Below are positions 2,218 to 62,561 of a DNA stretch of 64,000 nucleotides, piece by piece. Source of the stretch: Escherichia phage A7_1; sequence record OP795442. One strand, given 5' to 3'. The notes beneath the pieces are model-generated. The model did no database searches, was not told the origin of the DNA, and saw only the letters and a list, made by a program, of their open reading frames with translations. Each line of letters opens with the position of its first letter. Positions within the stretch are counted from its first letter, which is position 1. Both the position numbers and the translations under genes were made by a program.

Positions 2218-3393
2218 TCAAAACGGAATATCGTCGTCAAAATCCATATCATCTACAGACATATTTACATGTCCTTCAATATCAGGGGTAGGTGAATCTT
2301 CTGCTGACGGAGTTAACTGCGGTTCCGGCTCAGGTTTCTTTTCCTCTTGCTTAGGAGTTGAAGCACCGTTACGGATCTTATCTTCCAATTGACAGATGAA
2401 TCGGAAATTCTCTTCAGTCTTAGCAATAAAGGTTTCGATATTGTCACGACCCCAACGGGCAGAAAGAATGCCACACTGGCCTAAACGAGCACCGAAAGAG
2501 TAATCATCCATAGATTTAAACTCTTCACGCAGTTTTGCTTTGATCGAATCCATCGCTGCAAGAACTTGTTCTACGATCACACCCTGATTTGCAATAGTTT
2601 CATCAGGGAACATTGCATCGGTAATAGACAGTGCATTACCTAAACGAATAGGTAGATCATCTTTACCTTTACCTGAACGTGATCCTGTTCCAGTACTTGC
2701 ACCTTTTGGACCGTAAGCTTTAAAGCCTGTAACCGTACCATCATCTGAACGAACACCTGCAATACGACCACCTTCTGTAATCTGACCCGCCTGTTCATCA
2801 GTGAGGTTTACAGTAACTTCTGTGCCGTCTTCCAGCTTAACAACTACCTTATTGCCTTCAATAGATGTGATATCACCATAAATCTTCTTAGCTGCACCAC
2901 CAGACGGCTTTTGCTGCTGTTGGGAACCACTTGATTGCTGCTGTTTCTGACGAGGCTCACGAGCACCGGATGCGTCAGTAATTTTGATACGTGCTTTCTT
3001 ACCTTCTGTAGAAGAACCTTGACTACCATCTTCTTTGGTATAGGTCTTGATAACAACAGGTAAACGAATTTTCATACCCTCTTTAAGATCAGTGTAACCA
3101 CCTTCAGGATTTTTAATCTGGAACTGATTCTCATACTTCAGGTTTTTAACTTCACCCTCACCAAAAGAAATCCATGCTTGATCTTCACCTTCTTTAAGAA
3201 GAACCGCATAGCGGTGGGTATTGTTAATGCTTTTCTGCTGACCAGTATTCTTGTCTTTGAAGGTAGTCACTCGTGGGCTACCATCTTCATTAATACGTTT
3301 GATCATGATACGTTCAATCGTACCTGCTGCAATGTTTACTGTGGTATCGGAAACAGCATCGTATACAGCATTGATAACTTTAACTTCAGACAT
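2218..3393 (-). CDS. SSB-like DNA-binding protein with acidic C-terminal tail
   Basis: 391 aa ending DMDFDDDIPF, the acidic tail typical of SSB proteins; Gln/Gly/Ser-rich linker; the N-terminal domain is not obviously an OB fold to me. Confidence 0.6.
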   Translation of the reverse strand: MSEVKVINAVYDAVSDTTVNIAAGTIERIMIKRINEDGSPRVTTFKDKNTGQQKSINNTHRYAVLLKEGEDQAWISFGEGEVKNLKYENQFQIKNPEGGYTDLKEGMKIRLPVVIKTYTKEDGSQGSSTEGKKARIKITDASGAREPRQKQQQSSGSQQQQKPSGGAAKKIYGDITSIEGNKVVVKLEDGTEVTVNLTDEQAGQITEGGRIAGVRSDDGTVTGFKAYGPKGASTGTGSRSGKGKDDLPIRLGNALSITDAMFPDETIANQGVIVEQVLAAMDSIKAKLREEFKSMDDYSFGARLGQCGILSARWGRDNIETFIAKTEENFRFICQLEDKIRNGASTPKQEEKKPEPEPQLTPSAEDSPTPDIEGHVNMSVDDMDFDDDIPF

Positions 3394-7863: not shown

Positions 7864-8130
7864 TTAGATATAGTCTACACCAGCTTGTTCCAACAAGTCA
7901 AGTCTCAATTTAAGTTCTTTTTCACGATAATCGGAAACAAGTTTATCCTTTTTCTTTTCTTCTTCCTCAAACTGTTCGAGAGGAAGAATACGAATAATGT
8001 GTTCTGCCTTCATGTAGGACGTTGAACCAATAAGCTGAACATTACCATTTGGTAACAATCGGCCCTTGATCACCCGATAACGAGGGAACAAGTCATATTT
8101 AACAATCGCGGTAACTGCTAGATTACTCAT
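7864..8130 (-). CDS. hypothetical protein
   Basis: Track ORF, 88 aa. Confidence 0.45.
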   Translation of the reverse strand: MSNLAVTAIVKYDLFPRYRVIKGRLLPNGNVQLIGSTSYMKAEHIIRILPLEQFEEEEKKKDKLVSDYREKELKLRLDLLEQAGVDYI

Positions 8131-8449
8131 GTGTATTCTCCATATCGCGAATTCGATCTTCTACCCAACCACGACGATAAATGTTGAGGTAAGATTTACC
8201 TTTTGAACCATGATGGGCATATTCGTCAAAATCAAAATCGAAAGGTGTCTCGGTGTTAAGACCTGCATCAAAGAATTGATTCTTCATTTCGAATTGCACT
8301 TTCATATCTGGATCATTTTTACCTAAAAATGAGGACAAATTAAAACAAAGGCCAGCACCTCGGTAAAAAGCCCCATCTTTTGGTGCACCGATATCTAACC
8401 ATTTTTTATATTCTCGGTAGAAATTCAGAAGTTGCGGACTGCTTTTCAT
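8123..8449 (-). CDS. hypothetical protein (paralogue of 18204..18500)
   Basis: Track ORF 8123..8500 begins at a TTG inside a palindrome; likely start is the ATG about 51 nt downstream (MKSSPQLL) behind a GAGGAG SD; shares WLD-GAP / GLC / F-DAGLN / PFD motifs with 18204..18500. Confidence 0.5.
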   Translation of the reverse strand: MKSSPQLLNFYREYKKWLDIGAPKDGAFYRGAGLCFNLSSFLGKNDPDMKVQFEMKNQFFDAGLNTETPFDFDFDEYAHHGSKGKSYLNIYRRGWVEDRIRDMENTHE

Positions 8450-8470
8450 TTTGTTCTCCTCATTTGTTTT

Positions 8471-8498
8471 GATAGGACTACTATAACATAGTCCTATC
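8471..8498. promoter_or_regulatory. perfect 9-bp inverted repeat (GATAGGACT / AGTCCTATC) in the leader of gene 8123..8449
   Basis: Read directly; 10-nt spacer; no flanking T-run so not a terminator; possible operator or RNA structure. Confidence 0.4.
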
Positions 8499-8582
8499 AA
8501 CTTGTATACTATTTAATTAAAGATTTTATGAATACTTGGTAGGACCCTTCTTTAAATACTCATCTGGATAATAAAAATCATC

Positions 8583-8960
8583 CTATACTCCAAATGTGGA
8601 TTTGATTTCAGCAATAACCTCATGCACATTGTTTTCGTTTACTTCAAATGTGTAGGACGTTGGTTTAAGGAACGTCTGAGGTGAAACATTAACAAAGAAT
8701 TCAAATTCATCATCAAAAATTTCAAAGTATTTTCCCGGTGTTGATTCTTGACTTTTGAAAACAGTACCATCTTCCATAGTAACAGAAGAAACAGATTTTT
8801 CACCAAGGGTGTATGTTTTTAACTCATCAACAACGAAACTAGGACCGTGACGACGTAGTATTTCAACCATAGTTCGGTTGGCCCCGCAAATACCTGTCCG
8901 CTTAATAAATAACTCTTCACACCGAGGATTGAGAATATAAGTTTTTCCTACTTGCATCAT
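8583..8960 (-). CDS. hypothetical protein, tandem paralogue 1 of 3
   Basis: 125 aa; N-terminus M-x-(V/I)-GKTY-x-LN shared with the next two genes. Confidence 0.55.
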   Translation of the reverse strand: MMQVGKTYILNPRCEELFIKRTGICGANRTMVEILRRHGPSFVVDELKTYTLGEKSVSSVTMEDGTVFKSQESTPGKYFEIFDDEFEFFVNVSPQTFLKPTSYTFEVNENNVHEVIAEIKSTFGV

Positions 8961-8970
8961 AACAACCCCC

Positions 8971-9330
8971 TTAGGATAAGTTAAATGTGGATTTGATCAG
9001 GTCGATAGTTTCTTGTGCGTTTTGCTCAGATACTGACACCTGGATAATTTTAAGATCACTGACCTCTTCGAAGTATTTGAACTCAGATTCACGAAGTTCA
9101 AAGTACATTGCCCCACAGCCCACACTGAATGAATCACACCCTACAGCACCATCTTCTGTTGTGATGTTATTAACATACTCATCACCTTCGATCATACTCA
9201 TGTTATTAACAATAAATCGCGGCCCGTGCTCATCCAGAAAAGAAACAATCTCGTGATTGTAACTTGGGTCAGCCTTAATAAATTCTTCCACGAATTTTGG
9301 ATTAAGTTTATAAGTTTTACCTACTTCCAT
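8971..9330 (-). CDS. hypothetical protein, tandem paralogue 2 of 3
   Basis: 119 aa; aligns with 9342..9716 (GKTY, HGP-F-VNN, EDG, YFEL-ESEF, NAQET-DLIK-TFNL). Confidence 0.55.
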   Translation of the reverse strand: MEVGKTYKLNPKFVEEFIKADPSYNHEIVSFLDEHGPRFIVNNMSMIEGDEYVNNITTEDGAVGCDSFSVGCGAMYFELRESEFKYFEEVSDLKIIQVSVSEQNAQETIDLIKSTFNLS

Positions 9331-9341
9331 CTTTGTTCTCC

Positions 9342-9716
9342 TTACGCCAGGTTAAAGGTAGCTTTAATCAAATCTAAAGTTTCTTGTGCATTACTACGAG
9401 AGACGGCAACCTGAATAATAACAGGGTCTTCATCTTCCCCGACTTCTTTGAAGAAGGGAAATTCACTCTCTGCAAGTTCAAAGTATACACACTTGTTACC
9501 TTCGCAGTCGTGAAAAACGTCACTACCTAAAGTACCATCTTCAAATATGACATTGTTAACATATGCAACATTATCATAGAAGTGGGTGGTGTTGACAACA
9601 AATTTAGGACCGTGCTTATAAATAAGGTCAACCAATTCTTGATTGTAGCTAGGGTCCATATTGATAAAAGCTTTTTCTAAGTCTTTATTAAGAATGTAAG
9701 TTTTTCCGATTTCCAT
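9342..9716 (-). CDS. hypothetical protein, tandem paralogue 3 of 3
   Basis: 124 aa; same motif set. Confidence 0.55.
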   Translation of the reverse strand: MEIGKTYILNKDLEKAFINMDPSYNQELVDLIYKHGPKFVVNTTHFYDNVAYVNNVIFEDGTLGSDVFHDCEGNKCVYFELAESEFPFFKEVGEDEDPVIIQVAVSRSNAQETLDLIKATFNLA

Positions 9717-10259: not shown

Positions 10260-10681
10260 ACTCCATAATCTATCTTAACAAGCTTCCCTTTGTAGTATCC
10301 AAAGTTTTTAGGAAATGCGTCGTACTCGAAGAAATCTCGGTCAAGGGTTCTATCTTTATCGTTATCAATCTCATCATAAAGTTTTTGTAGATCAGCTGTA
10401 AATAATTCCTTATTCTCTACTGATTTAGCCTTGTGCATCACAACCATAAGTCCGAATCTGTTTGAGTAAGCTATTGGGCATAGATGCGGGTTATTATACC
10501 CTTTCCACTGACCCTCTGTCATATTGCTGAGCATTCCCTGAACAAACGCCTTCCATGAATTAAATCTTGGGAACTTAATCGCATACTTGTTTGTGATTAT
10601 GACAATTCTCGTCCCACCACTCCTGTTTATCTGCATCTTAATATCTCCAGACCTCGTTACTTGTTTCGATGAGGGCATCAT
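10256..10681 (-). CDS. hypothetical protein
   Basis: Track ORF, 141 aa. Confidence 0.5.
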   Translation of the reverse strand: MMPSSKQVTRSGDIKMQINRSGGTRIVIITNKYAIKFPRFNSWKAFVQGMLSNMTEGQWKGYNNPHLCPIAYSNRFGLMVVMHKAKSVENKELFTADLQKLYDEIDNDKDRTLDRDFFEYDAFPKNFGYYKGKLVKIDYGV

Positions 10682-10723
10682 ACCAGAATGAATCTGTGTG
10701 TCAACACTTTTTATTCAGATAAT

Positions 10724-10750
10724 AAAAAACCACCCCGAAGGGTGGTTTAA
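10724..10750. terminator. bidirectional terminator
   Basis: Hairpin accaccccgaagggtggt with A-run before and T-run after. Confidence 0.75.
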
Positions 10751-10751
10751 A

Positions 10752-11276
10752 TTAATTGCACAGGATGGTCTTTATAGCTGCATCAACTTCTGGACCTTCC
10801 TTACCGATAAAAGAAGCAAGACCCTTAAGTTTACAGGCTTCATACACTGCCCTAGCTTCTTCTTTTGTCCTGTATCTCCCAATATGTTTTTTGTTGATCT
10901 TGACCCTCCATTTCTGGCGATCTTCTTCCCAAGATATGCCTTTTCTTTTTGTCCAGTAACGATTAAGGTCACCGGAGATAAACAGGCAGGTTTCTGGTGA
11001 ATATACCTTACCGCCTTTTAAATCTTTATCAAGGCACTTCCCCTTCCAATCCTTTGTTTGCATCCACGCTTTGAAATTGCTAAACCTGAGCCACTCTTCA
11101 CAGACGGTAGTCCCCTCATAAGAGGGGTCCCTTGACAAAGCGCCCTGATCGTAACAACGTTGAAGCATACTCATCCATCGCATGTAGAATGGGCACATCT
11201 TTTCGTCTGGCCTAACATTGTAACCTGCGTCGTTTATACCCTTTCCGTAAACCATAAAAAACTCCTTATAAATCAA
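10752..11276 (-). CDS. AP2-like DNA-binding domain protein, homing-endonuclease-related
   Basis: C-terminal ISWEEDRQKWRVKINKKHIGRYRTKEEARAVYEA resembles AP2 domains of phage homing endonucleases; no clear HNH or GIY-YIG catalytic motif seen. Confidence 0.5.
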   Translation of the reverse strand: MIYKEFFMVYGKGINDAGYNVRPDEKMCPFYMRWMSMLQRCYDQGALSRDPSYEGTTVCEEWLRFSNFKAWMQTKDWKGKCLDKDLKGGKVYSPETCLFISGDLNRYWTKRKGISWEEDRQKWRVKINKKHIGRYRTKEEARAVYEACKLKGLASFIGKEGPEVDAAIKTILCN

Positions 11277-11282
11277 TAACTA

Positions 11283-13937
11283 CTAATGGCACGCCCCCCA
11301 GTTCATCCCTGTGAGGTATTCTCCAGTTATCATCACTGGTGATTTCATCATCTTAGCTGCTTGTTCGACACAACGAACAACCATCTCTCCTACAGGGCAG
11401 TATGTAATAGTGAAGATACCATTTTCATCAGGATCACACTTAAACTTCCCTTCTTTCACACAATGACCATCTAAGACCATCTTCTTAGCCAAGCAAGCTT
11501 CTACAAATTTTTTCGCGTCAGCTTCGTTGTCAAAGGTCCAGGTCTTCTTGAACTTGTGTGGCACTTCAAGCTGGTATTCATCATGATAGTAAATGATACG
11601 GCGAACACCTTCATCATACCAACCTTTCTTAACCAACTGCCAGTGCAGGAGGATACCTACCAAGTCAAACAGTGCAGCACCACCATTCTGCTGATAAGCA
11701 TTAAGCAATGAGTGTTTGGAACGAGTGTAGATCTTACGTCCATCAAGACCGTAGATGAATCGCTTACCGTTAGCTTCCCAAAACTTCTCTAGTGCTTCTT
11801 TACGACCTTTCAAGCCGATGTTGCTATCCCAGAATGCGTCGATTACTGCCTGGGCCTTCTCAAGAGTGATCCCCAGCATTGATGCAATCTTCGCTGCCTG
11901 TGCCCCGTACATAATTCCGTATGTCACACCTTTACCTTCACCACGAGAAACCTTCTTCCCTGCCGCTTTGGTATACGCTTCTGCGTTTCGGGAGTGAGCA
12001 TCTCCAGATTCCATGATACGAAGATAAGCGCCACCATCGAAATCATACGCGCCCCATGCCGCGATCATACCTTCCAAGTTTGAACCGTCGATACCTACCT
12101 GATATTTACCCTCGGAGGCTCTAAACAGTTCACGCATCTCTTTACCGAGAAGAACTTTCTCATCCGGCTTAGGTACGTTTGCTACGATCGTATGCTTACG
12201 ACGACCTGTGTTAGTTATTCCACTATAACGGGCCGGAAGTTTACCGTCAACCCGTAGACGTGGATGGTTAAGCCATCCGGTATCAACCTTCTCTTCTTTC
12301 AGTGGGTCAAGAACAGATCGTCGGTTACGTAAAGACAGCCATTTAACAATCTGTTTAGCCATTTCACCATCTACTCGCTCAAGGTTAGGGCAAAGACCCT
12401 GCTGATCCTTAAGTTGTGGAGATGTTGGTAATGCACGGGCTTTCTTCCTGAAGAACTTATACATCTTCTCTTTATCTTGCCACTGCTTACCACTGATACC
12501 TAAACTTTTCAGAATCAGATCGCGATATTCAGTCTGGTCAAGATCATCAATATATTGACGAACAATGATATCGACTTCGTTATCGGGACGTTGTTTCTTA
12601 AACTGGTCCTTCGTCGCATCTTTAGTTCGCCACAATGTTGGGACCCAACCAGCATCACGAATAAGGAATTTTTTAACGTCATCCTGATTACCAATACGCA
12701 TCGGGATCATAATGTCCGGCATCTTTTGTTCTTTGATATCCATCAAAGCACGAGCCATATCTTCCGGCGGCAAAGGAACAAGCCCTTGCTGCTTAACGTT
12801 TTGTGCACGGATAAAATCACCCATTTTGGATTCATCTTCTACACCGTGTTCAACACAATACTTGATCGCGGCGGCAGTAAGAGATCCGTCAGCCTTAAAC
12901 GGCTTACTTGGTGCACCTTTAAACTCTAATGCTTCCCAATTGATATTATAACCTAACTTCTCTAACCATTTCCAACCTGTACCGGAAAGAGATCCATCAC
13001 CCTTGAAAGGCTTAGATGGGAATGTCGGTTGTGCTGATTTCGACATTTCTTTCTTCGGTAACTTAGGTTCAACCTCTAACTCAATGTCTGTCATCATCTT
13101 ATCGATACGATCACGGAGCTTGAGTGCTTTTTCTTCATCAAATGAAACACCCTGAATCTCTTGCTCAATCATCAGGTAGTCGGTCAGCATACCTCGACGC
13201 AGGGCATTCTTCCAGTTGATCATTTTAAACTTCTTCTGATCTTTGTCTGTTTCATCCTTAAACATGAAGCGTTTATCATCTGGCATGGATTCACAAGAGA
13301 TCTCTTTCATCAGAGCATCCCACACCATTTCGTTGATAATTACGTCTTCAATAATACGATCGCAATATTTCCAAAGTGGAAGGCCACGCCAATCTTCAAT
13401 CGCCACTTTCTGGTTGGCTACTCGCATACCCCAAGCTTCAAGCCCGTGAGGGCCTACAGGCTTCATTTTACCTGTGACTGGGTTCTTTACCATCTCGGGA
13501 CAACCACGAGGCAGAGGGCGATCTGGATACAATGTACGGGACATTGAAAGTGTATCGAAGATGTTTACTTGTTTACCATTAATCGTACCCATGCAACCAG
13601 GGTCTGCAAACATATCGTAAGTTGTTCCAAGCATCTTCTTAAACAACTGGAGGTCGTAGCCGAAGATGTTGTGGATAGCAATTGCTTTAGGCTCTGTGAC
13701 AAACCACTCGTTTAATTCCTCAATGGTCCGAATCTTAAAGTTTTTACCTTTAGATTGGATAAATTTAACAGCTTGATCGTAACCTTCCCGCTGGGGATCA
13801 AGAAAGATGTTCCAGTTATCTTTTTTATACTCTTTAAACAAGACGCAGTGAATCAGATCAACCTCTGTCAATAGACCATTCGCTTCCGCATCTCCAATAA
13901 ATAAGCCTTTCATTTTTTCTCCTTCTTCAAGCTCCAA
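11283..13937 (-). CDS. DNA polymerase, family A, with 3'-5' exonuclease domain
   Basis: 884 aa; N-terminal FIGDAEANGL (Exo I D-x-E); motif A DGSNLEGM; motif B R-GEGKGVTYGIMYG; motif C YHDEYQLE. Confidence 0.9.
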   Translation of the reverse strand: MELEEGEKMKGLFIGDAEANGLLTEVDLIHCVLFKEYKKDNWNIFLDPQREGYDQAVKFIQSKGKNFKIRTIEELNEWFVTEPKAIAIHNIFGYDLQLFKKMLGTTYDMFADPGCMGTINGKQVNIFDTLSMSRTLYPDRPLPRGCPEMVKNPVTGKMKPVGPHGLEAWGMRVANQKVAIEDWRGLPLWKYCDRIIEDVIINEMVWDALMKEISCESMPDDKRFMFKDETDKDQKKFKMINWKNALRRGMLTDYLMIEQEIQGVSFDEEKALKLRDRIDKMMTDIELEVEPKLPKKEMSKSAQPTFPSKPFKGDGSLSGTGWKWLEKLGYNINWEALEFKGAPSKPFKADGSLTAAAIKYCVEHGVEDESKMGDFIRAQNVKQQGLVPLPPEDMARALMDIKEQKMPDIMIPMRIGNQDDVKKFLIRDAGWVPTLWRTKDATKDQFKKQRPDNEVDIIVRQYIDDLDQTEYRDLILKSLGISGKQWQDKEKMYKFFRKKARALPTSPQLKDQQGLCPNLERVDGEMAKQIVKWLSLRNRRSVLDPLKEEKVDTGWLNHPRLRVDGKLPARYSGITNTGRRKHTIVANVPKPDEKVLLGKEMRELFRASEGKYQVGIDGSNLEGMIAAWGAYDFDGGAYLRIMESGDAHSRNAEAYTKAAGKKVSRGEGKGVTYGIMYGAQAAKIASMLGITLEKAQAVIDAFWDSNIGLKGRKEALEKFWEANGKRFIYGLDGRKIYTRSKHSLLNAYQQNGGAALFDLVGILLHWQLVKKGWYDEGVRRIIYYHDEYQLEVPHKFKKTWTFDNEADAKKFVEACLAKKMVLDGHCVKEGKFKCDPDENGIFTITYCPVGEMVVRCVEQAAKMMKSPVMITGEYLTGMNWGACH

Positions 13938-16626: not shown

Positions 16627-17343
16627 TTATTTGTTGTATTGATAAATTGCTTCAGCTAAGCCCCGTGGGGTTAGTGACCGGATCATCTTAGTTCTTGCTG
16701 ACTTACCTCCTAACTTATTCTGCTGATCTGACCAACCAGGTGCAACAGGAACCGGAGAGGTTTTTGGAATTATAAACCCATTTCCTGTCCAAAGTCCAGT
16801 CTTTTTCGGATAAGCATCCCTTGGTTTAATGTATTGAGGAAAATAAGGGTTAACATCATTTACCGGAAGGTAACCGCCATATTCCCAAGGGTTAAAATAT
16901 ACAGTAGGTTTTCGCCATTGTCCAGCTAAAACACTTACTGGGTTTTCAATCATATACGGACAATCGAAAACAAATTCAGCAAGCCAAGCTGCAATCTTCG
17001 CAGTTCTTACCGCCTTGACCTGGAAGAAAGGATCTTTTGCTTTCTTCGATGCAAAGTGACGAGAACCACTAACAGCCATATCGGTACATGGAGGATAGGC
17101 AAGGATCAGGTCCGGCGCAGGCAATCCTAAGTTCTCTACATTCTCCATCCATTCAATATCGATAAAGGCGTTAACGTAAGTGATGTTGGGATGAATTTCC
17201 TTTACGCCTTCATAATCCCCGTGATCAGCATCGTCATAGTTGAAGCAGTAGCATTTGTGCCCTGCCTTCGCCCAGGGAAGAACATCAATCCCTGAACCAG
17301 AAAAGAGACTCCAGATAATCTTTTTATTCATCGTAGCATCCAA
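16627..17343 (-). CDS. minimal C5-cytosine methyltransferase-like protein
   Basis: 238 aa; motif I LFSGSG, motif IV AYPPCTDMAVSG (Pro-Cys), motif VI-like MIENPV, C-terminal TPRGLAEA; unusually short with no obvious target-recognition domain. Confidence 0.55.
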   Translation of the reverse strand: MDATMNKKIIWSLFSGSGIDVLPWAKAGHKCYCFNYDDADHGDYEGVKEIHPNITYVNAFIDIEWMENVENLGLPAPDLILAYPPCTDMAVSGSRHFASKKAKDPFFQVKAVRTAKIAAWLAEFVFDCPYMIENPVSVLAGQWRKPTVYFNPWEYGGYLPVNDVNPYFPQYIKPRDAYPKKTGLWTGNGFIIPKTSPVPVAPGWSDQQNKLGGKSARTKMIRSLTPRGLAEAIYQYNK

Positions 17344-17636
17344 ATAGTGGTTAATTTACAAATACACCAGAAAATCCCGATCAGTGTAGCCAGAGTAATA
17401 ACACAAGTCAATACTATAGGTAAGAATATCGTCATAATCACTGCAAAAACTGAAATACCTATGCTTGCAATAAGATCCGGCACGAAATAGTGAAATGGAT
17501 CTCTTGCCTTTTTAATGTTGTCCCATGTTATTACTACGGAGCTAAGGACGAGCCAGAATAAAAAGTACAAAATGCAAGGAAATAAAGTCATGTGTGACTT
17601 AACCATATCAAACCACATGTTGTAGAATTCAATCAT
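17328..17636 (-). CDS. membrane protein
   Basis: 102 aa, three hydrophobic helices. Confidence 0.5.
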   Translation of the reverse strand: MIEFYNMWFDMVKSHMTLFPCILYFLFWLVLSSVVITWDNIKKARDPFHYFVPDLIASIGISVFAVIMTIFLPIVLTCVITLATLIGIFWCICKLTTIWMLR

Positions 17637-17956
17637 TCAGTTTTCCTCGGTACAGATGCAATAACAGCCTTTTCGACGAGACATACAATAAATCTCCCAA
17701 TCCCTGCCAAAAGGAGAGCAAAGACTGTAAAAGGCAACCCATAAATAAGAACCAAAATCATCAATCCAAAACAAGCGGAAAACAGGACTTCTGTGCCTAG
17801 CCACATTTTGGAGTAATTGATATAATTATGCCGCAATTTTAAAAACAGTCCAGCAATAGAGCCTACAGAAAATATACCAATCAACCAAGGTGCAGTTACA
17901 AATGAACGACTGAACCCTTCCCAAAAAACAAAAACATTAATGATTGCTTCGATCAT
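17633..17956 (-). CDS. membrane protein
   Basis: 107 aa, multiple hydrophobic helices. Confidence 0.5.
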   Translation of the reverse strand: MIEAIINVFVFWEGFSRSFVTAPWLIGIFSVGSIAGLFLKLRHNYINYSKMWLGTEVLFSACFGLMILVLIYGLPFTVFALLLAGIGRFIVCLVEKAVIASVPRKTE

Positions 17957-18207
17957 AAACCATACCTCGCTTCATATAAGAATTCATCAAGATCTTTACT
18001 GTCGTCGGAACCTTCTACTGTCAACGGCATCAGGTGTTCTTTGAAATAATAGCAAAGATTGCCGGAACTCGTTTCCACTAAACATGTGGTTTTGCAAACC
18101 ATCTTAACTTTCACCGATAGTCCCGCATCTTCATGGCTGTGGACCATTGCAAGACAACCATCATAAAGCTTATCCTCGTAAGGTAAGCAAGGATCTGGAT
18201 TTTTCAT
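17953..18207 (-). CDS. hypothetical protein
   Basis: Track ORF, 84 aa. Confidence 0.45.
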   Translation of the reverse strand: MKNPDPCLPYEDKLYDGCLAMVHSHEDAGLSVKVKMVCKTTCLVETSSGNLCYYFKEHLMPLTVEGSDDSKDLDEFLYEARYGL

Positions 18208-18500
18208 CGTGAACTTTCCTCCTCCGCATGTTTACGCACCCATTCTACACGGGACGCGTTCAGGTGTTTGTTATCGTCGTAGTGATACGCTTTCCAACCT
18301 TCGTCGAAAGGGAACTCCCAGTTCAGTCCGGCATCGGTAAACTGTTGCTGCATCTCTTTGAGTAACTTATAGTCACACTCTGAAAACTCTTCCAGTGCGT
18401 TACACAGACCGCAGGTCCGATCAAACGTCTCGGAGTGTGGTGCACCAGCGTCAAGCCACTCAGCATAGGCTTTATAGAATGCTTTAAGTTGCTCGCTCAT
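18204..18500 (-). CDS. hypothetical protein (paralogue of 8123..8449)
   Basis: 98 aa; shared motifs with 8123..8449. Confidence 0.5.
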   Translation of the reverse strand: MSEQLKAFYKAYAEWLDAGAPHSETFDRTCGLCNALEEFSECDYKLLKEMQQQFTDAGLNWEFPFDEGWKAYHYDDNKHLNASRVEWVRKHAEEESSR

Positions 18501-18896
18501 TTATTTATCCTCTGCATATGCAATCTTAGTCATGTAGTCAATACAATCATATTGAACATTGTGGCTATTAAAAACAGCCTTGTCTTTGTAAATAACTTGC
18601 CAATAATCAATGCTTTCAATTTCGGAAAGGTATGCAACACACTCCCCTTTTGGATTAATAAGTTCAACTCGATCAGTTTCTCGTAATTTCCAACCAGTAG
18701 GTAACTGAACAGCTTGTTCCTTAAAAATCACAATATCGTCACGGTGACCAGTTGCCCTTTTAAATGCCCGCAGTAATTCTTTGTATTCACGATATTTCAC
18801 ATAAAGGCCGTCCTCTGATTTTTCCATACGGGCTTCATTGATATTGCAATTACCATCCATATCTCCAACCAGGTCGTAACGATATACAGGTTTCAT
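18501..18896 (-). CDS. hypothetical protein
   Basis: Track ORF, 131 aa. Confidence 0.5.
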   Translation of the reverse strand: MKPVYRYDLVGDMDGNCNINEARMEKSEDGLYVKYREYKELLRAFKRATGHRDDIVIFKEQAVQLPTGWKLRETDRVELINPKGECVAYLSEIESIDYWQVIYKDKAVFNSHNVQYDCIDYMTKIAYAEDK

Positions 18897-19105
18897 TTTT
18901 TAACTTTCTCCTTTTTCTCAGGTTTTACATCGCAAACTTTTTGTTGATAACTGATCGGTGTTACATAGCGCCACGTCTTTTTAAGGTTCTCAACGAGGAT
19001 TCGCATTTGTTCCTCATCAGCACCCCAGCCTGCGGTATGTGCTATTTCATCAACACTCATCTGGCATTTAACGTACCATCTTGTAATTGTCTTCGATTGT
19101 ATCAT
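18893..19105 (-). CDS. hypothetical protein
   Basis: Track ORF, 70 aa. Confidence 0.45.
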   Translation of the reverse strand: MIQSKTITRWYVKCQMSVDEIAHTAGWGADEEQMRILVENLKKTWRYVTPISYQQKVCDVKPEKKEKVKK

Positions 19106-19132
19106 TATCGTTTCCTTAAGGTCAAGAGATTT

Positions 19133-19429
19133 TTATTTAATACCTAATTCTTTTGCACTGTAAATATCATTACCTTCATAGCCTTTGTAGTAGATCAGGA
19201 TATCTTTGACAATCTCTCCCGTCGGTCCGCTCCGGCGAGTACGTGGTCGCTGTGCATTGACCAAATAAACTTCACCACGAGTATTTATTTTTGTTGTACG
19301 ATGGCCTTCGACAAAGGTCAAAGTTGTATATGCAGGAACCTTAACAAGAACTTCTACCTGGTCACCAGCAGTATTCTGTTGTTCATTTGCCATATCGTCT
19401 TTAACAACAGTCGTCATAAGTTTGGTCAT
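19133..19429 (-). CDS. hypothetical protein
   Basis: Track ORF, 98 aa. Confidence 0.5.
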   Translation of the reverse strand: MTKLMTTVVKDDMANEQQNTAGDQVEVLVKVPAYTTLTFVEGHRTTKINTRGEVYLVNAQRPRTRRSGPTGEIVKDILIYYKGYEGNDIYSAKELGIK

Positions 19430-19431
19430 TT

Positions 19432-19695
19432 TTATTCTCCTTTGTTCAATGTGGATACGAATTCGATATAAGATTCTGCATTTCGTTTATGATAAATCTG
19501 AGGATAGCTGTCGGTTACTTTGCCGTATTTGATGTATCGCTCAAGCATACCGACAACACCACCAATGGAATGCACAACAACGCCTTCTTCACCGACAAAG
19601 GTAACCACTTCTACGAATGGACTGTTATCATAAGAACGATTTACAATCAGATCGCCGACTTCAAATTCGATTTTATCATTTTGTGAGTAGTGCAT
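19432..19695 (-). CDS. hypothetical protein
   Basis: Track ORF, 87 aa. Confidence 0.5.
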   Translation of the reverse strand: MHYSQNDKIEFEVGDLIVNRSYDNSPFVEVVTFVGEEGVVVHSIGGVVGMLERYIKYGKVTDSYPQIYHKRNAESYIEFVSTLNKGE

Positions 19696-19756
19696 TTGTT
19701 TCTCCTTTCTGTTTGGTATGGGAGAAGTATAGGGGAGTTTAGGAGGGGTGTCAATA

Positions 19757-19785
19757 GAAAAACCGCCCGAAGGCGGTTTATTTTG
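19757..19785. terminator. bidirectional terminator
   Basis: aaccgcccgaaggcggtt hairpin flanked by A-run and T-run. Confidence 0.8.
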
Positions 19786-19792
19786 AAAAATA

Positions 19793-20902
19793 TCAGAAAG
19801 GTGCTTCGTCGTCGAAATCTACATCTTCAACTTCCGGTACATCAGGAATGTCACCTGCGGATTCAACGATACTCTGTTGTTCCCACGTAGGTTCCTCTGA
19901 AGGTTGGTCCATTTCTTCCATAACCTTCTTGATCTCTTCCTCTTGCTCACGTAGGAAGTTATCATCCGGCTCAGGAATATCTTCCTCTTTAATATCTGAA
20001 CGAGTGAGATCACTGTTTTGTTCAGACAAAGGTTGAATCTCTGCGGCCTTAGGTTTGAAATCTGGAGAACGATGATCATCTTCTGGATGAGCGGCATACC
20101 ACTCACGAAGAGTTTCATAAGGACTCTCTAGGAAGCCCTCTGGCGGTTCCAGATAATCACCTGTATCAATGTCATAGAACACAGGGAATTTACCAGCACG
20201 ACCGTGTTTACGGTCATCCAGGATAACAAAGTAAGAAGTGTTACGTTGTTTCATCGGAAGCTCTGGATCTTTGTTACGTTCAATACCCCACATATAGTAA
20301 GTGTTTCGCATCATTGCACGGCTACCAGCAAACTGCGCCGACTGGACTTGACCACCAAATTCATGAGGCTTACCAGATTCAGGCTTGTTAAGGTGACAGA
20401 AGCAATAATAAGTAAAGCCAAGCTCTTTTGCCAGTTTGGAGATCTCATCCGAGAATCGTTCCAGTTCCTGGTTAGCTTCAGAAGCACTCATACCTTGCAC
20501 AAGACGAGTGATCGGGTCAATAAAGATATCTTCACAACCTTCTACGATCACTGCGTGACGGATAGCACCTTTCAGTTCATCCCATACTGCACGACCATAG
20601 TTGTTATAATAGATAACACTATCACCAACTTCATCAGTAGCTTTGATCAGTTCTTCTTGCTTAAAGTAGCCACGTTGACCTTCAAATACTTCATTACCCC
20701 AAATGTCACGGAAAGTTCCATCTTCTTGAGGAATCATTACCTTTTCTGCGTTAACAAAGTCTTTATGATAACGCTTACCTGCGATCTTCTTACAAGTGAT
20801 CTCGTTCTCTTCTTCAAACTTAAACACCGCAGCTTTTGACTTCTCAATACCCGTGATGTGTTCAACCATTTGGTTAAGAAGTTCAGACTTGCCCATTTTC
20901 AC
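19793..20902 (-). CDS. replicative helicase domain (T7 gp4-like), 3' exon of split primase-helicase
   Basis: Begins (V/M)KMGKSELL, the second half of a Walker A box; RecA-like core; ends with acidic tail DVDFDDEAPF. Confidence 0.8.
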   Translation of the reverse strand: MKMGKSELLNQMVEHITGIEKSKAAVFKFEEENEITCKKIAGKRYHKDFVNAEKVMIPQEDGTFRDIWGNEVFEGQRGYFKQEELIKATDEVGDSVIYYNNYGRAVWDELKGAIRHAVIVEGCEDIFIDPITRLVQGMSASEANQELERFSDEISKLAKELGFTYYCFCHLNKPESGKPHEFGGQVQSAQFAGSRAMMRNTYYMWGIERNKDPELPMKQRNTSYFVILDDRKHGRAGKFPVFYDIDTGDYLEPPEGFLESPYETLREWYAAHPEDDHRSPDFKPKAAEIQPLSEQNSDLTRSDIKEEDIPEPDDNFLREQEEEIKKVMEEMDQPSEEPTWEQQSIVESAGDIPDVPEVEDVDFDDEAPF

Positions 20903-21643
20903 CGTTATGTTCGACAGGGTTCGCTACTCCCTGCCCGTTCTCTTACGAACTGCTACATGTCCCCATGCAGACCAGACTATATCTTCAACCTGTTTCCAGG
21001 TGCTATGCACTTCGGACCGCTTGGTCCTACTCTACTCGATTCAAGAGTCTAGCTCTTGTCTTTCGATAGTCGTTGCTCCTTCCTCTCAACCGCTTTGTAA
21101 TTTGTCTTACGGTATCTCTGTGTATCCCAAAATGCTCTGCAATTTCTTTTTGTTGAAGCGTGGTATTAATAACCATTTCGTAAACCTGCTTCTCAAAATC
21201 ATCAGCATATCTATTTGGATTTCTTCTACCGTTGGCCCAACCATGATCGACATTTTCTTTCGTGGTTGTCCATTCCAAATTAACATCGTTGTTGTTTTGC
21301 CTGTCGCTATCTTTATGATTAACAACAGGAAGGTTATGAGGGTTATCAACGTAGTGTTCAGCCACCAATTGGTGAATAAATCTACGTGTAACCTTACCAT
21401 CTTTACTTAACGAAACTCTAAGATACCCTGAACTATTGGTATCCGGTTTGAGTTTTTTAAGCTTCCGGTAAACATCTCCCCTTCGGGTAATGATGTAATT
21501 TTCAAAACCTTTTATTCTTTTCATTTCCCCCTCCTTGCAATAAACAAAGAGGTTGAGAGGCTTGGATCAGGATTACGTGTTCTACGCTTCCCCTGAGTTC
21601 ACATAGTATTTAGTCGAGGCATCTCTGCCAAGGCTGGCTAGAC
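20903..21643 (-). mobile_element. intervening sequence in primase-helicase gene, candidate group I intron with HNH homing endonuclease ORF
   Basis: About 740 nt between primase stop and helicase start; contains an independent ORF with its own SD; approximate boundaries. Confidence 0.6.
21027..21524 (-). CDS. HNH-family homing endonuclease (intron-encoded candidate)
   Basis: 165 aa; N-terminal GFENYIITRRGDVY (NUMOD4-like), HNH-type core, basic C-terminal DNA-binding tail; AAGGAGGGGG SD. Confidence 0.8.
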   Translation of the reverse strand: MKRIKGFENYIITRRGDVYRKLKKLKPDTNSSGYLRVSLSKDGKVTRRFIHQLVAEHYVDNPHNLPVVNHKDSDRQNNNDVNLEWTTTKENVDHGWANGRRNPNRYADDFEKQVYEMVINTTLQQKEIAEHFGIHRDTVRQITKRLRGRSNDYRKTRARLLNRVE

Positions 21644-22588
21644 TTAATGTTTACCAGCACCGATGAAGTAACCTTCACCTGGACGACGACCCAAGGTAAG
21701 CTTGGTCATGGTGGGCCAAGGGAACTTCTTGCCGAGTTTAGGGATCTCATGTGCCTTTTCGCGGAACTGTGAATAAGTCGAGAAACCATCCGGCACATAT
21801 TCCTTTGGCTTCATTGCAGCCCAAAACAACTGATCAGAAAGTCCTTTGTTATACATGTCGCAAGGGTCCATATCTTCTGGAATGTCCACGACCTTCATTT
21901 GTGGAATTACAGAGTATACCGCTGCAACTGCATCTTTACCTTTCATGATCCCTTTGGCCTTCTCTGCTTCTGTCGCACGGTCAGCATCGAAAGCTACGAT
22001 AATCTCTTCAAACTTACTCAGAAGCTTATAGTTATTCTTCTGTGATAAGTTTTGCACGGCATTGGATGTACCGTTAGAGATAGATACAACTGTGAAGTTT
22101 GGTTTACGAGTGGAACCATCCTTCGGTTTGTACTTCTCTGTCAATACCTGCCACAAGATTGCAGCATCGTATTCACCTTCAGTGATAAAGATCATACGTT
22201 TGGAAGACTTGTTTGCACCTTCCAGACCAAACATATCACAGGCTACAGATTGGAAACCGATAGTTGTAAAGTGCCCTTTCTGTTGCTTAGGGATCGTAAG
22301 ATCACGCTTTTTAAAACCTACAACCTTACCTTCCAATGTGTACGGAAAATAATGTGCTTCTGGAGTCATACCGTCTTTAGCTGACAACTTGGTACGAATA
22401 CCAAATCGTTTAGCTGTCTTTTCGTCGATACCACGCTCAGGGATACTTTTACACGGGTAAGTCAATACATCTTCAACTGTTTCTTCCACACGAGACACAC
22501 CACCACCATAATTACGTGCTACTGAAGCTTTAGGATTTTTATGTCCGAACTTATAACCGCCAAACAAACTTTCGCCAATAGTGCTCAT
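21644..22588 (-). CDS. DNA primase (TOPRIM) domain, 5' exon of split primase-helicase
   Basis: 314 aa; TOPRIM motifs IFITEGEYDA and VAFDADRA; ends GEGYFIGAGKH-stop, the first half of a Walker A box. Confidence 0.8.
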   Translation of the reverse strand: MSTIGESLFGGYKFGHKNPKASVARNYGGGVSRVEETVEDVLTYPCKSIPERGIDEKTAKRFGIRTKLSAKDGMTPEAHYFPYTLEGKVVGFKKRDLTIPKQQKGHFTTIGFQSVACDMFGLEGANKSSKRMIFITEGEYDAAILWQVLTEKYKPKDGSTRKPNFTVVSISNGTSNAVQNLSQKNNYKLLSKFEEIIVAFDADRATEAEKAKGIMKGKDAVAAVYSVIPQMKVVDIPEDMDPCDMYNKGLSDQLFWAAMKPKEYVPDGFSTYSQFREKAHEIPKLGKKFPWPTMTKLTLGRRPGEGYFIGAGKH

Positions 22589-44547: not shown

Positions 44548-44799
44548 ATGGCTAACAAAACTAAAACCACTAAAACTTATAACGGTCACAAAAACAAAAA
44601 TCATTGGAACGTTTCTCTATGGCTTAACAATGATTCATCACTTTACCAGCTGGCGAAAGAATTTATTAACGCTAACACTAATCGTAATGATGCGGCGCGG
44701 GATATGATGATTTTTCTGGAACAAACTGGACAATATAAAACTCCAGACGGTTTCAAGTACAGCACTACGGCGATCCGTGCTGCAATGGTTGGAATGTAA
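44548..44799 (+). CDS. hypothetical protein (paralogue of 46366..46605)
   Basis: 83 aa; shares HWNVSLW and C-terminal TPDGFKYSTTAIRAAMVGM. Confidence 0.55.
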   Translation: MANKTKTTKTYNGHKNKNHWNVSLWLNNDSSLYQLAKEFINANTNRNDAARDMMIFLEQTGQYKTPDGFKYSTTAIRAAMVGM

Positions 44800-46365: not shown

Positions 46366-46605
46366 ATGGCTAAATCTAAAACTTTCAACGATCACAAAAA
46401 CAAAACTCATTGGAATGTTTCCTTGTGGATTAATAATGGTGAAGCACTGTATCGGCTTGCTCAAAATTGCATTGCACAAAGTAAAACTAAAGATATTGCT
46501 GCGGAATGTATGTACCGCAGATTAAAAGCGAACGGCACTACAACAACGCCGGACGGATTTAAGTATAGCACCACTGCGATCCGTGCCGCGATGGTTGGAA
46601 TGTAA
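46366..46605 (+). CDS. hypothetical protein (paralogue of 44548..44799)
   Basis: 79 aa; HWNVSLW and C-terminal TPDGFKYSTTAIRAAMVGM shared. Confidence 0.55.
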   Translation: MAKSKTFNDHKNKTHWNVSLWINNGEALYRLAQNCIAQSKTKDIAAECMYRRLKANGTTTTPDGFKYSTTAIRAAMVGM

Positions 46606-61363: not shown

Positions 61364-62561
61364 TTATTCCGGCAATTCCAAGGGTGTAAACTCGAAGAGT
61401 TGCATACCTATGTAACCTGGGAGCAATCCTGCACTGCTATTACCGACACCATATAGGATTCCTTTATCTACATAGTAGTGTGCAACATAGCCACCTTTTA
61501 GTGATGAATATTCTCCACCATATGGTACAGTCGCTGCAAGCTGTGTAAATACTGAATATGAAGACTGGAATTGTGCGCCTGCGCCTTGTAAACTACCCGT
61601 AGCTGCTCCTGTATAGTATACCCTTTTTTCTTCCGGGTGGAGAATACGGGCGCTAAAGTGACCAATGTACAAAGGAGGTAATGAAGGTACATTGGAAAAT
61701 ACCAACGTTGGCGCAACAACGTTTATATTACCCGAGTTGTTTACCCCGAGACTTCCTGACACACTTTGTCCTTGTGCGTAAACGGAGTAACTACCATTTG
61801 AAAGCACAATCCTAAAAAATCCAAACGTTGTCGCAATTATGTCAACTACCGTACCACCGCTAATTTGGCTTTGCCTAAGCCAAGTTGTATTGCTTGAAGT
61901 TGTTCCATTTTGTCCATTATTTGAAAGACCTGCGACATAAACTTCACCACTTTTGGTCAGAAGATAGGATGTATCGTATGTTGACCAGTCAAGATCTATT
62001 TTTTCAACATTCGTGAAGTCAGTCCTTAAGGTTAAGGTTTTTACCGTAGAGGTATCTCCTTTCCCCAAACCCCCTGAGTTGTTAGTACCAGGTTTTTACC
62101 GTAGAGGTATCTCCTTTCCCCAAACCCCCTGAGTTGTTAGTACCACACATTGCATACTGCCCATTGGTAAAGACAACAGCCAGATTACGATGCCCGATCG
62201 CCACCTGCTTAACTATAAGTCCTCTAGGTATAGGCATATCGGCAGTTACATCCGTGGGTGTCCTTATCGTAGTCCCATAACCCGTATTGAAATATTGATT
62301 AAACCCCATAAACAGCCACCTACCTGCGGTTGTCCTCATGAGAACAGCACTAGATGCAGTCCATATCTCTTCCACTTCTCTTGCCAGATAGCGCCATGTT
62401 GTAGCATTTCCCCCTGTACCGCTGAAGTATTGATCTCCTATACCATAGACGTTACCGGAGTTCATAAGCACAACAATGCCACCATTGCCAGCGGCAAACT
62501 TCTTAACGTTACCTTCCACCACTGGCAATTCGGCAGAGCCTAAGTTCATCATTTCTAACAT
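61364..62561 (-). pseudogene. tail-fibre paralogue disrupted by a 55-bp tandem duplication
   Basis: Track ORFs 62082..62561 and 61364..62068 both encode GLGKGDTSTVKT at the junction; removing one 55-bp copy joins them in frame. Confidence 0.7.
62036..62145. repeat. perfect 55-bp tandem duplication
   Basis: ggtttttaccgtagaggtatctcctttccccaaaccccctgagttgttagtacca occurs twice back to back. Confidence 0.9.

Follow-up and report, generated by a model that had tools for sequence, protein, structure and literature searches.

Two small genes on the minus strand of the DNA analysed here, a 64,000-nucleotide stretch of an Escherichia phage genome (hereafter, the window), encode proteins of a single family that is widespread among phages, and the evidence favours regarding them as members of that family which diverged long ago rather than as the outcome of a recent internal duplication. 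One of them (copy B) is the resident copy of its phage clade, while the other (copy A) has probably been acquired or exchanged horizontally. The window is from a Septuagintavirus (Vequintavirinae); the region 17000-20000 is 98.2% identical to Escherichia phage A5-4 and 93–95% identical to W70, A73, UPEC06 and vB_EcoM-LTH01 (hereafter LTH01). W70 and A73 feature in the description of the genus Septuagintavirus, in which the A/B gene pair is not mentioned (PMC11370258). The two genes are as follows.

18204..18500, minus strand: copy A, 98 aa, acidic (pI 4.8), all-alpha, phrog_2510 / N4 gp3-like family; GC-rich accessory copy

8123..8449, minus strand: copy B, 108 aa, pI 5.9, GC 38%, same family as A; resident copy

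The initial annotation had described these genes as a dispersed paralogue pair carrying a series of shared motifs in the same order, and the resemblance that it reported is real. Both open reading frames are present on the minus strand and lie 9.7 kb apart within one leftward gene block, and the shared motifs occur in equal order in A and B, namely WLDAGAP/WLDIGAP, GLC/GLC, FTDAGLN/FFDAGLN and PFD/PFD. In pairwise alignment, 41 of 93 residues are identical (44%; BLASTP, E = 1e-21), and the Smith-Waterman score of 169 is far above the scores of 2000 shuffled controls (27.3 ± 5.0, maximum 52; z = 28), which is the opposite of the outcome that the initial annotation had named as refuting. The preceding gene's stop codon is immediately followed by the ATG of copy A, which has a GAGGA ribosome-binding site 7 nt ahead of it, and copy B begins with an ATG at 8449 preceded by a GAGGAG ribosome-binding site; the TTG at 8500, which opens a longer mechanical reading frame, is unlikely to be the true start of B. 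The AlphaFold2 models of A (pLDDT 89.5, pTM 0.79) and B (pLDDT 94.1, pTM 0.86) are all-alpha and share five helices at corresponding positions and in matching order. The idea that the similarity stems from chance or composition, and that the reading frames are not genes, is refuted by the distance from the shuffled scores, by the existence of hundreds of homologues and by the confident models, and both frames are annotated and conserved in relatives, so that the probability of this explanation is negligible. Six-frame phmmer and family-HMM scans found exactly two family copies in the window, and the portions of the A5-4 genome lying outside the window contain no third copy.

What does not hold of the term 'paralogue pair' is duplication inside this genome, against which the family tree, the base composition and the polymorphism at the A locus all speak, while the homology itself stands. 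In a neighbour-joining tree of family members (100 bootstraps), A groups not with B but with gp19 of the T1-like siphovirus Sf12 and a metagenomic protein (bootstrap 76), and the clade of A is distinct from that of B (support 100). At the protein level, A is 68–69% identical to Sf12 gp19 and up to 76% identical to metagenomic proteins, as compared with 43–44% to B. In nucleotide sequence, the aligned codons of A and B are 50% identical, and the longest stretch that the genes share is no more than 10 nt, for which reason gene conversion between the two was rejected. The GC content of A is 49.2% versus 40.2% for the window and 37.6% for B, and only 0.55% of 297-bp segments attain 49% GC. The T1-like phage relatives of A, as well as the W70 allele, are also GC-rich relative to their own genomes. 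A recent duplication within the genome followed by divergence, with the copies sharing or splitting one function, would fit two genes that are alike in genome, strand, family and predicted fold, and tandem and fused duplicates do occur elsewhere in the family; nevertheless, the closer kinship of A with Sf12 gp19 and metagenomic proteins, the separate clades, the low nucleotide identity and the difference in GC content make such an origin very improbable. Copy A is thus an accessory single-gene cassette, compositionally foreign and most similar to genes of T1-like phages, and its ancient divergence from B is the reading retained here.

The presence of each copy in related phages, a check that the initial annotation had suggested, separates the two genes clearly: B is kept in all five clade records, and A is swapped or deleted in four of them. 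Among these near-identical phages, the A locus holds either of two different alleles or is an empty site. The W70 allele shares 64–65% protein identity with A, and A73 carries a W70-type allele. At the nucleotide level, A and the W70 allele are 76% identical, while the genes adjoining A are 93–99.7% identical; within A, the central part (18241..18454) is 69% identical to W70, and both ends are approximately 95% identical. A diverged centre flanked by conserved ends indicates that A was replaced by another allele via recombination within those ends. In UPEC06 and LTH01, A is missing, and the alignment of the window with A5-4, W70 and UPEC06, together with the junction sequences, locates two short repeats at its gene junctions.

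18508..18515, minus strand: GCAGAGGA, 3' end of the upstream 131-aa 'Eae-like' gene and ribosome-binding site of A; short repeat at the A deletion junction

18217..18227, minus strand: GCGGAGGAGGA, 3' end of A and ribosome-binding site of the downstream 84-aa gene; second junction repeat

The Eae-like protein of UPEC06 and LTH01 terminates in ...AYAE-EEGSQ or ...AYAE-EEESSQ, having kept the C-terminal tail of A as a scar. Because of this scar, the empty site represents an in-frame 288-bp deletion of a pre-existing A and not an ancestral site that had never been occupied. A was therefore lost in UPEC06 and LTH01 by deletion between Shine-Dalgarno-like repeats at its two gene junctions, and A is dispensable.

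Copy B behaves as the resident copy of the Septuagintavirus clade and is under purifying selection. Its gene is 98.5% identical to that of W70 and 94.2% identical to that of UPEC06 in nucleotide sequence, its protein is 98–100% conserved in the three clade relatives examined at the B locus, and tblastn finds it at 95% identity or higher in 5/5 clade records. The gap upstream of B, 99% identical in W70, contains a further element.

8471..8498, no strand assigned: perfect 10-bp inverted repeat, GATAGGACTA-N8-TAGTCCTATC, in the 133-bp gap directly upstream of B

This inverted repeat is unique in the window, where none is expected by chance, and overlaps a weak promoter-like site; it may be an operator or an RNA hairpin. 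Directly upstream of B lie three tandem paralogues on the minus strand (8583..8960, 8971..9330 and 9342..9716; 125, 119 and 124 aa), which are 35–53% identical to one another and all match phrog_622, a family of no known function. In A5-4, an extra annotated gene of 243 bp, A54_267, lies between B and the first phrog_622 gene, in the interval 3030..3331 that was compared with 8450..8582 of the window; it is absent from the window as well as from W70 and UPEC06, and hence the gene content of the window is not identical to that of its closest relative.

The family to which A and B belong is large. Both proteins match phrog_2510 over their full length in hmmscan (A, E 2.1e-25; B, E 1.8e-22), with weaker matches to phrog_6418 and phrog_2176, and with a family HMM derived from 126 members the E-values are 1.3e-33 for A, 1.6e-30 for B and 2e-21 for N4 gp3. 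The phrog_2510 profile has 219 positions, about twice the length of one domain, whereas A and B are single-domain proteins; this length fits the two-domain fused members of the family. A HMMER search of 1.84 billion representatives returned 1537 proteins at E ≤ 1e-3 and 645 at E ≤ 1e-10, these roughly 1,500 family representatives being clusters at 50% identity. In 50,697 phage records searched by tblastn, A is found in 188 records at 367 places and B in 224 records at 483 places. The carriers include Phapecoctavirus, phi92-like phages (Stephanstirmvirinae), N4 (gp3) and N4-like phages of Erwinia, Achromobacter and Klebsiella (Schitoviridae), T1-like Drexlerviridae (Sf12 gp19, Opt-719), Rhizobium phages and jumbo phages; rV5 has no member. 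The only plasmid match is a P1-like phage-plasmid, and an insensitive search of bacterial genomes, comprising a limited contig scan with a seven-sequence alignment and a single peptide pattern, showed no relatives. The family is thus apparently confined to phages.

All annotated matches of the family are labelled 'hypothetical protein', and searches for relatives of known function were negative. Neither A nor B has a match better than E 0.1 in Pfam, NCBIfam or PADLOC, no Pfam family is common to more than 2 of the 126 aligned members, and profile searches of PDB sequences with the 7- and 126-sequence alignments gave no match. Among solved structures, including those of small anti-defence proteins (sponges and DNA mimics), no relative in sequence or structure was found. 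The structural matches that were obtained in BFVD, with query-normalised TM-scores of 0.74–0.87, are themselves family members from phages of Rhizobium, Burkholderia, Pectobacterium, Achromobacter and Klebsiella. No citation of phrog_2510 was found in the literature searched, and the literature on HIDEN-SEQ and on Zorya, Druantia and ARMADA revealed no link to the family. Its members are nonetheless readily recognised by their conserved residues: the GAP, GLC and PF(D/N) motifs are present in A and B, as are the six residues that are invariant in the 126 members, W15, L32, C33, P64, F65 and R84 (A numbering), and the near-invariant positions include L5, F8, Y9, Y12, G19, A20, F26, G31, Q53, F54, L59, N81, W87 and V88.

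Multiplicity is a trait of the family and not a peculiarity of this phage. The family HMM detects seven copies within 12 kb in phAPEC8 and two copies in phi92 (gp006 and gp010), and N4-like metagenomic contigs carry two adjacent copies directly after their N4 Gp1/Gp2 homologues. Fused members with two domains (about 200 aa) or three domains (344 aa) keep the motifs in each domain. As clues to function, the fusions yielded only self-fusions, one zinc-ribbon-like tail and unannotated extensions. Like A and B, the copies of phAPEC8 (phAPEC8_0018, 0019, 0030, 0041, 0044, 0051 and 0054) and phi92 are multiple and dispersed, and occur in large rV5-like myoviruses of E. coli; in contrast to A and B, they lie near the left end of the genome, and none is a highly identical ortholog of either. 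The closer ones share 32–48% identity with A or B, and the most divergent (phAPEC8_0051, phAPEC8_0054 and phi92 gp010) share 21–28%. N4 gp3 (ABK54374) resembles A and B in its domain, its length of about 100 aa and its status as a single stand-alone gene, with 32% identity by tblastn, and a limited check of the N4 literature found no mention of it. In N4-like phages, the gene occupies a fixed early position after gp1/gp2, whereas A and B lie within a block of replication genes. None of the 14 proteins flanking A and B has a homologue near the family members in N4, phAPEC8, Sf12, phi92, Opt-719 and two N4-like contigs, which indicates that the family gene travels alone.

The leftward block that contains A and B includes several replication genes and, according to a consensus scan, two terminator-like hairpins, each followed by a promoter-like sequence.

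11283..13937, minus strand: DNA polymerase, 884-aa open reading frame, in the leftward replication block with A and B

16627..17343, minus strand: DNA methyltransferase, in the leftward replication block

19793..22588, minus strand: split primase/helicase, in the leftward replication block

19726..19779, minus strand: terminator-like hairpin (19779..19760), then TTGACA-17-TATACT (19754..19726)

10677..10748, minus strand: terminator-like hairpin (10748..10727), then TTGACA-16-TATGAT with an extended -10 TG (10704..10677)

The predicted near-consensus sigma-70-type promoter at 19754..19726 is the probable start of the transcription unit of A, and that at 10704..10677, likewise predicted, probably begins the unit of B; promoter-like sites as a class are not more frequent in the region (39) than in shuffled sequence (32 ± 6). 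Several loci of the block have features of their own. The two parts of the primase/helicase correspond to phrog_239 positions 101-366 (21644..22588) and 368-657 (19793..20902), and between them lies an HNH endonuclease open reading frame (21027..21524), as well as a sub-threshold group I intron match at 20953..21143 (24.9 bits against a gathering score of 50; E 0.0016). In A73 and LTH01, the primase/helicase is annotated as a single uninterrupted gene of 2046 bp each, and the split looks like the insertion of a mobile intron or homing endonuclease. A second HNH endonuclease frame (phrog_953; 10752..11276, minus strand) lies immediately downstream of the DNA polymerase frame, and the polymerase annotation differs between A5-4 (three separate pieces) and UPEC06 (a single gene), so that this locus, too, varies among relatives. 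ARAGORN found no tRNA genes in the 64,000-nt window, so that any tRNA genes of the phage lie outside it or are absent; the rV5 record has six annotated tRNA genes, five of which are within about 0.75 kb.

With respect to function, no enzymatic or nucleic-acid-binding signature was recognised in the family proteins, and members in other phages, those with defined genome ends, occupy early positions: N4 gp3 belongs to the gp1-gp14 group that precedes the RNAPII genes and is located at 1.2 kb, and in phi92 the distance between gp006 and the left terminal repeat is 2.3 kb. We propose, with a probability of about one in two, that the family consists of non-catalytic early proteins whose binding partner is a macromolecule of the host or the phage, a role in counter-defence or host takeover being the most plausible. 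In this proposal, A and B would be transcribed by the host RNA polymerase from sigma-70-type promoters, early or early-middle in infection, and their non-catalytic products would bind a host (or phage) macromolecule stoichiometrically while the phage takes over the cell. The binders would most plausibly serve in counter-defence or host shutoff, and repeated duplication and allele exchange might broaden the range of target variants covered. Small phage counter-defence proteins include DNA mimics such as Ocr and Arn, and signal sponges such as Acb2 and Tad2. The analogy with these lies in proteins that are small, acidic, encoded in early regions, accessory, rapidly exchanged, often multi-copy and free of enzymatic signatures; A and B have no sequence or structural similarity to them, and the likeness is a lead rather than an assignment to their class. 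As for acidity, the median pI of the family is 5.6, between the values of A and B.

Two other functions can be weighed against this proposal. The conservation of polar residues is unusually rich for a helical domain of 100 aa, with C33 and R84 at 100%, N81 at 93%, Q53 at 91%, E49 at 89% and R28 at 85%, and a ligand-binding or catalytic site would also fit such a pattern. An enzyme, or a protein that binds a small molecule (for instance, a sponge sequestering a nucleotide signal of a defence system), could use Cys33/Arg84, Glu49, Gln53, Asn81 and His79/His91; small helical signal-sponge proteins are known in phages, and the tandem or fused arrangement of copies would be well suited to binding pockets formed by oligomers. 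We consider this unlikely. A metal site formed by Cys/His/His/Glu, as a candidate of its own, is weakened by B, which departs from the family consensus at two positions that are mostly His (H79->Y and H91->R in A numbering). The absence of both His residues from B is also a hint of a functional difference between the two copies. The second alternative, an auxiliary factor serving transcription or replication of the phage itself, such as a cofactor of the early-to-middle switch in the manner of N4 gp1/gp2, draws on the synteny with N4 gp1/gp2 and on the replication-module context of A and B; the location of the genes inside replication or recombination modules, both here and in T1-like phages, makes a role in phage DNA metabolism possible. 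We regard this alternative as doubtful, and a stoichiometric early binder of host or phage macromolecules remains our preferred reading.

As a pair, A and B are ordinary, because small multi-copy genes are common in large lytic phages, and the window itself has at least three other small multi-copy gene families. A second dispersed pair, 44548..44799 and 46366..46605 on the plus strand (83 and 79 aa), matches phrog_871, which has no known function, and its members are 55% identical over 89 aa (E 1e-29); the adjacent frames 62082..62561 and 62571..63818 on the minus strand are distantly related (28% over 153 aa, E 6e-13). Around 61.9–62.3 kb, there are also short peptide repeats that are nearly identical. 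The finding of the pair is accordingly of modest interest, and what gives it value is how large and obscure the family is, together with the natural series of alleles and deletions among five near-identical phages. The pair draws attention to a very large family which lacks a Pfam entry, a solved structural relative and an assigned function, and yet is present in model phages, including N4, phi92, T1-like phages and a P1-like phage-plasmid. The five Septuagintavirus genomes offer a natural comparison of a resident copy, two accessory alleles and a clean deletion, and the deletion junction shows how a single gene can be removed precisely and in frame from a compact phage operon by repeats of the Shine-Dalgarno sequence. 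More tentatively, the family may represent an unrecognised, widespread and phage-specific fold acting as a counter-defence or host-shutoff module. If this were true, the duplications (2–7 copies per genome, tandems, and two- and three-domain fusions), together with the loss of cassettes at ribosome-binding-site repeats and the exchange of alleles through the conserved coding ends at the N- and C-terminus, would be the footprint of an arms race, in which the two copies would either be directed at separate host targets or target variants or form a heterodimer with each other.
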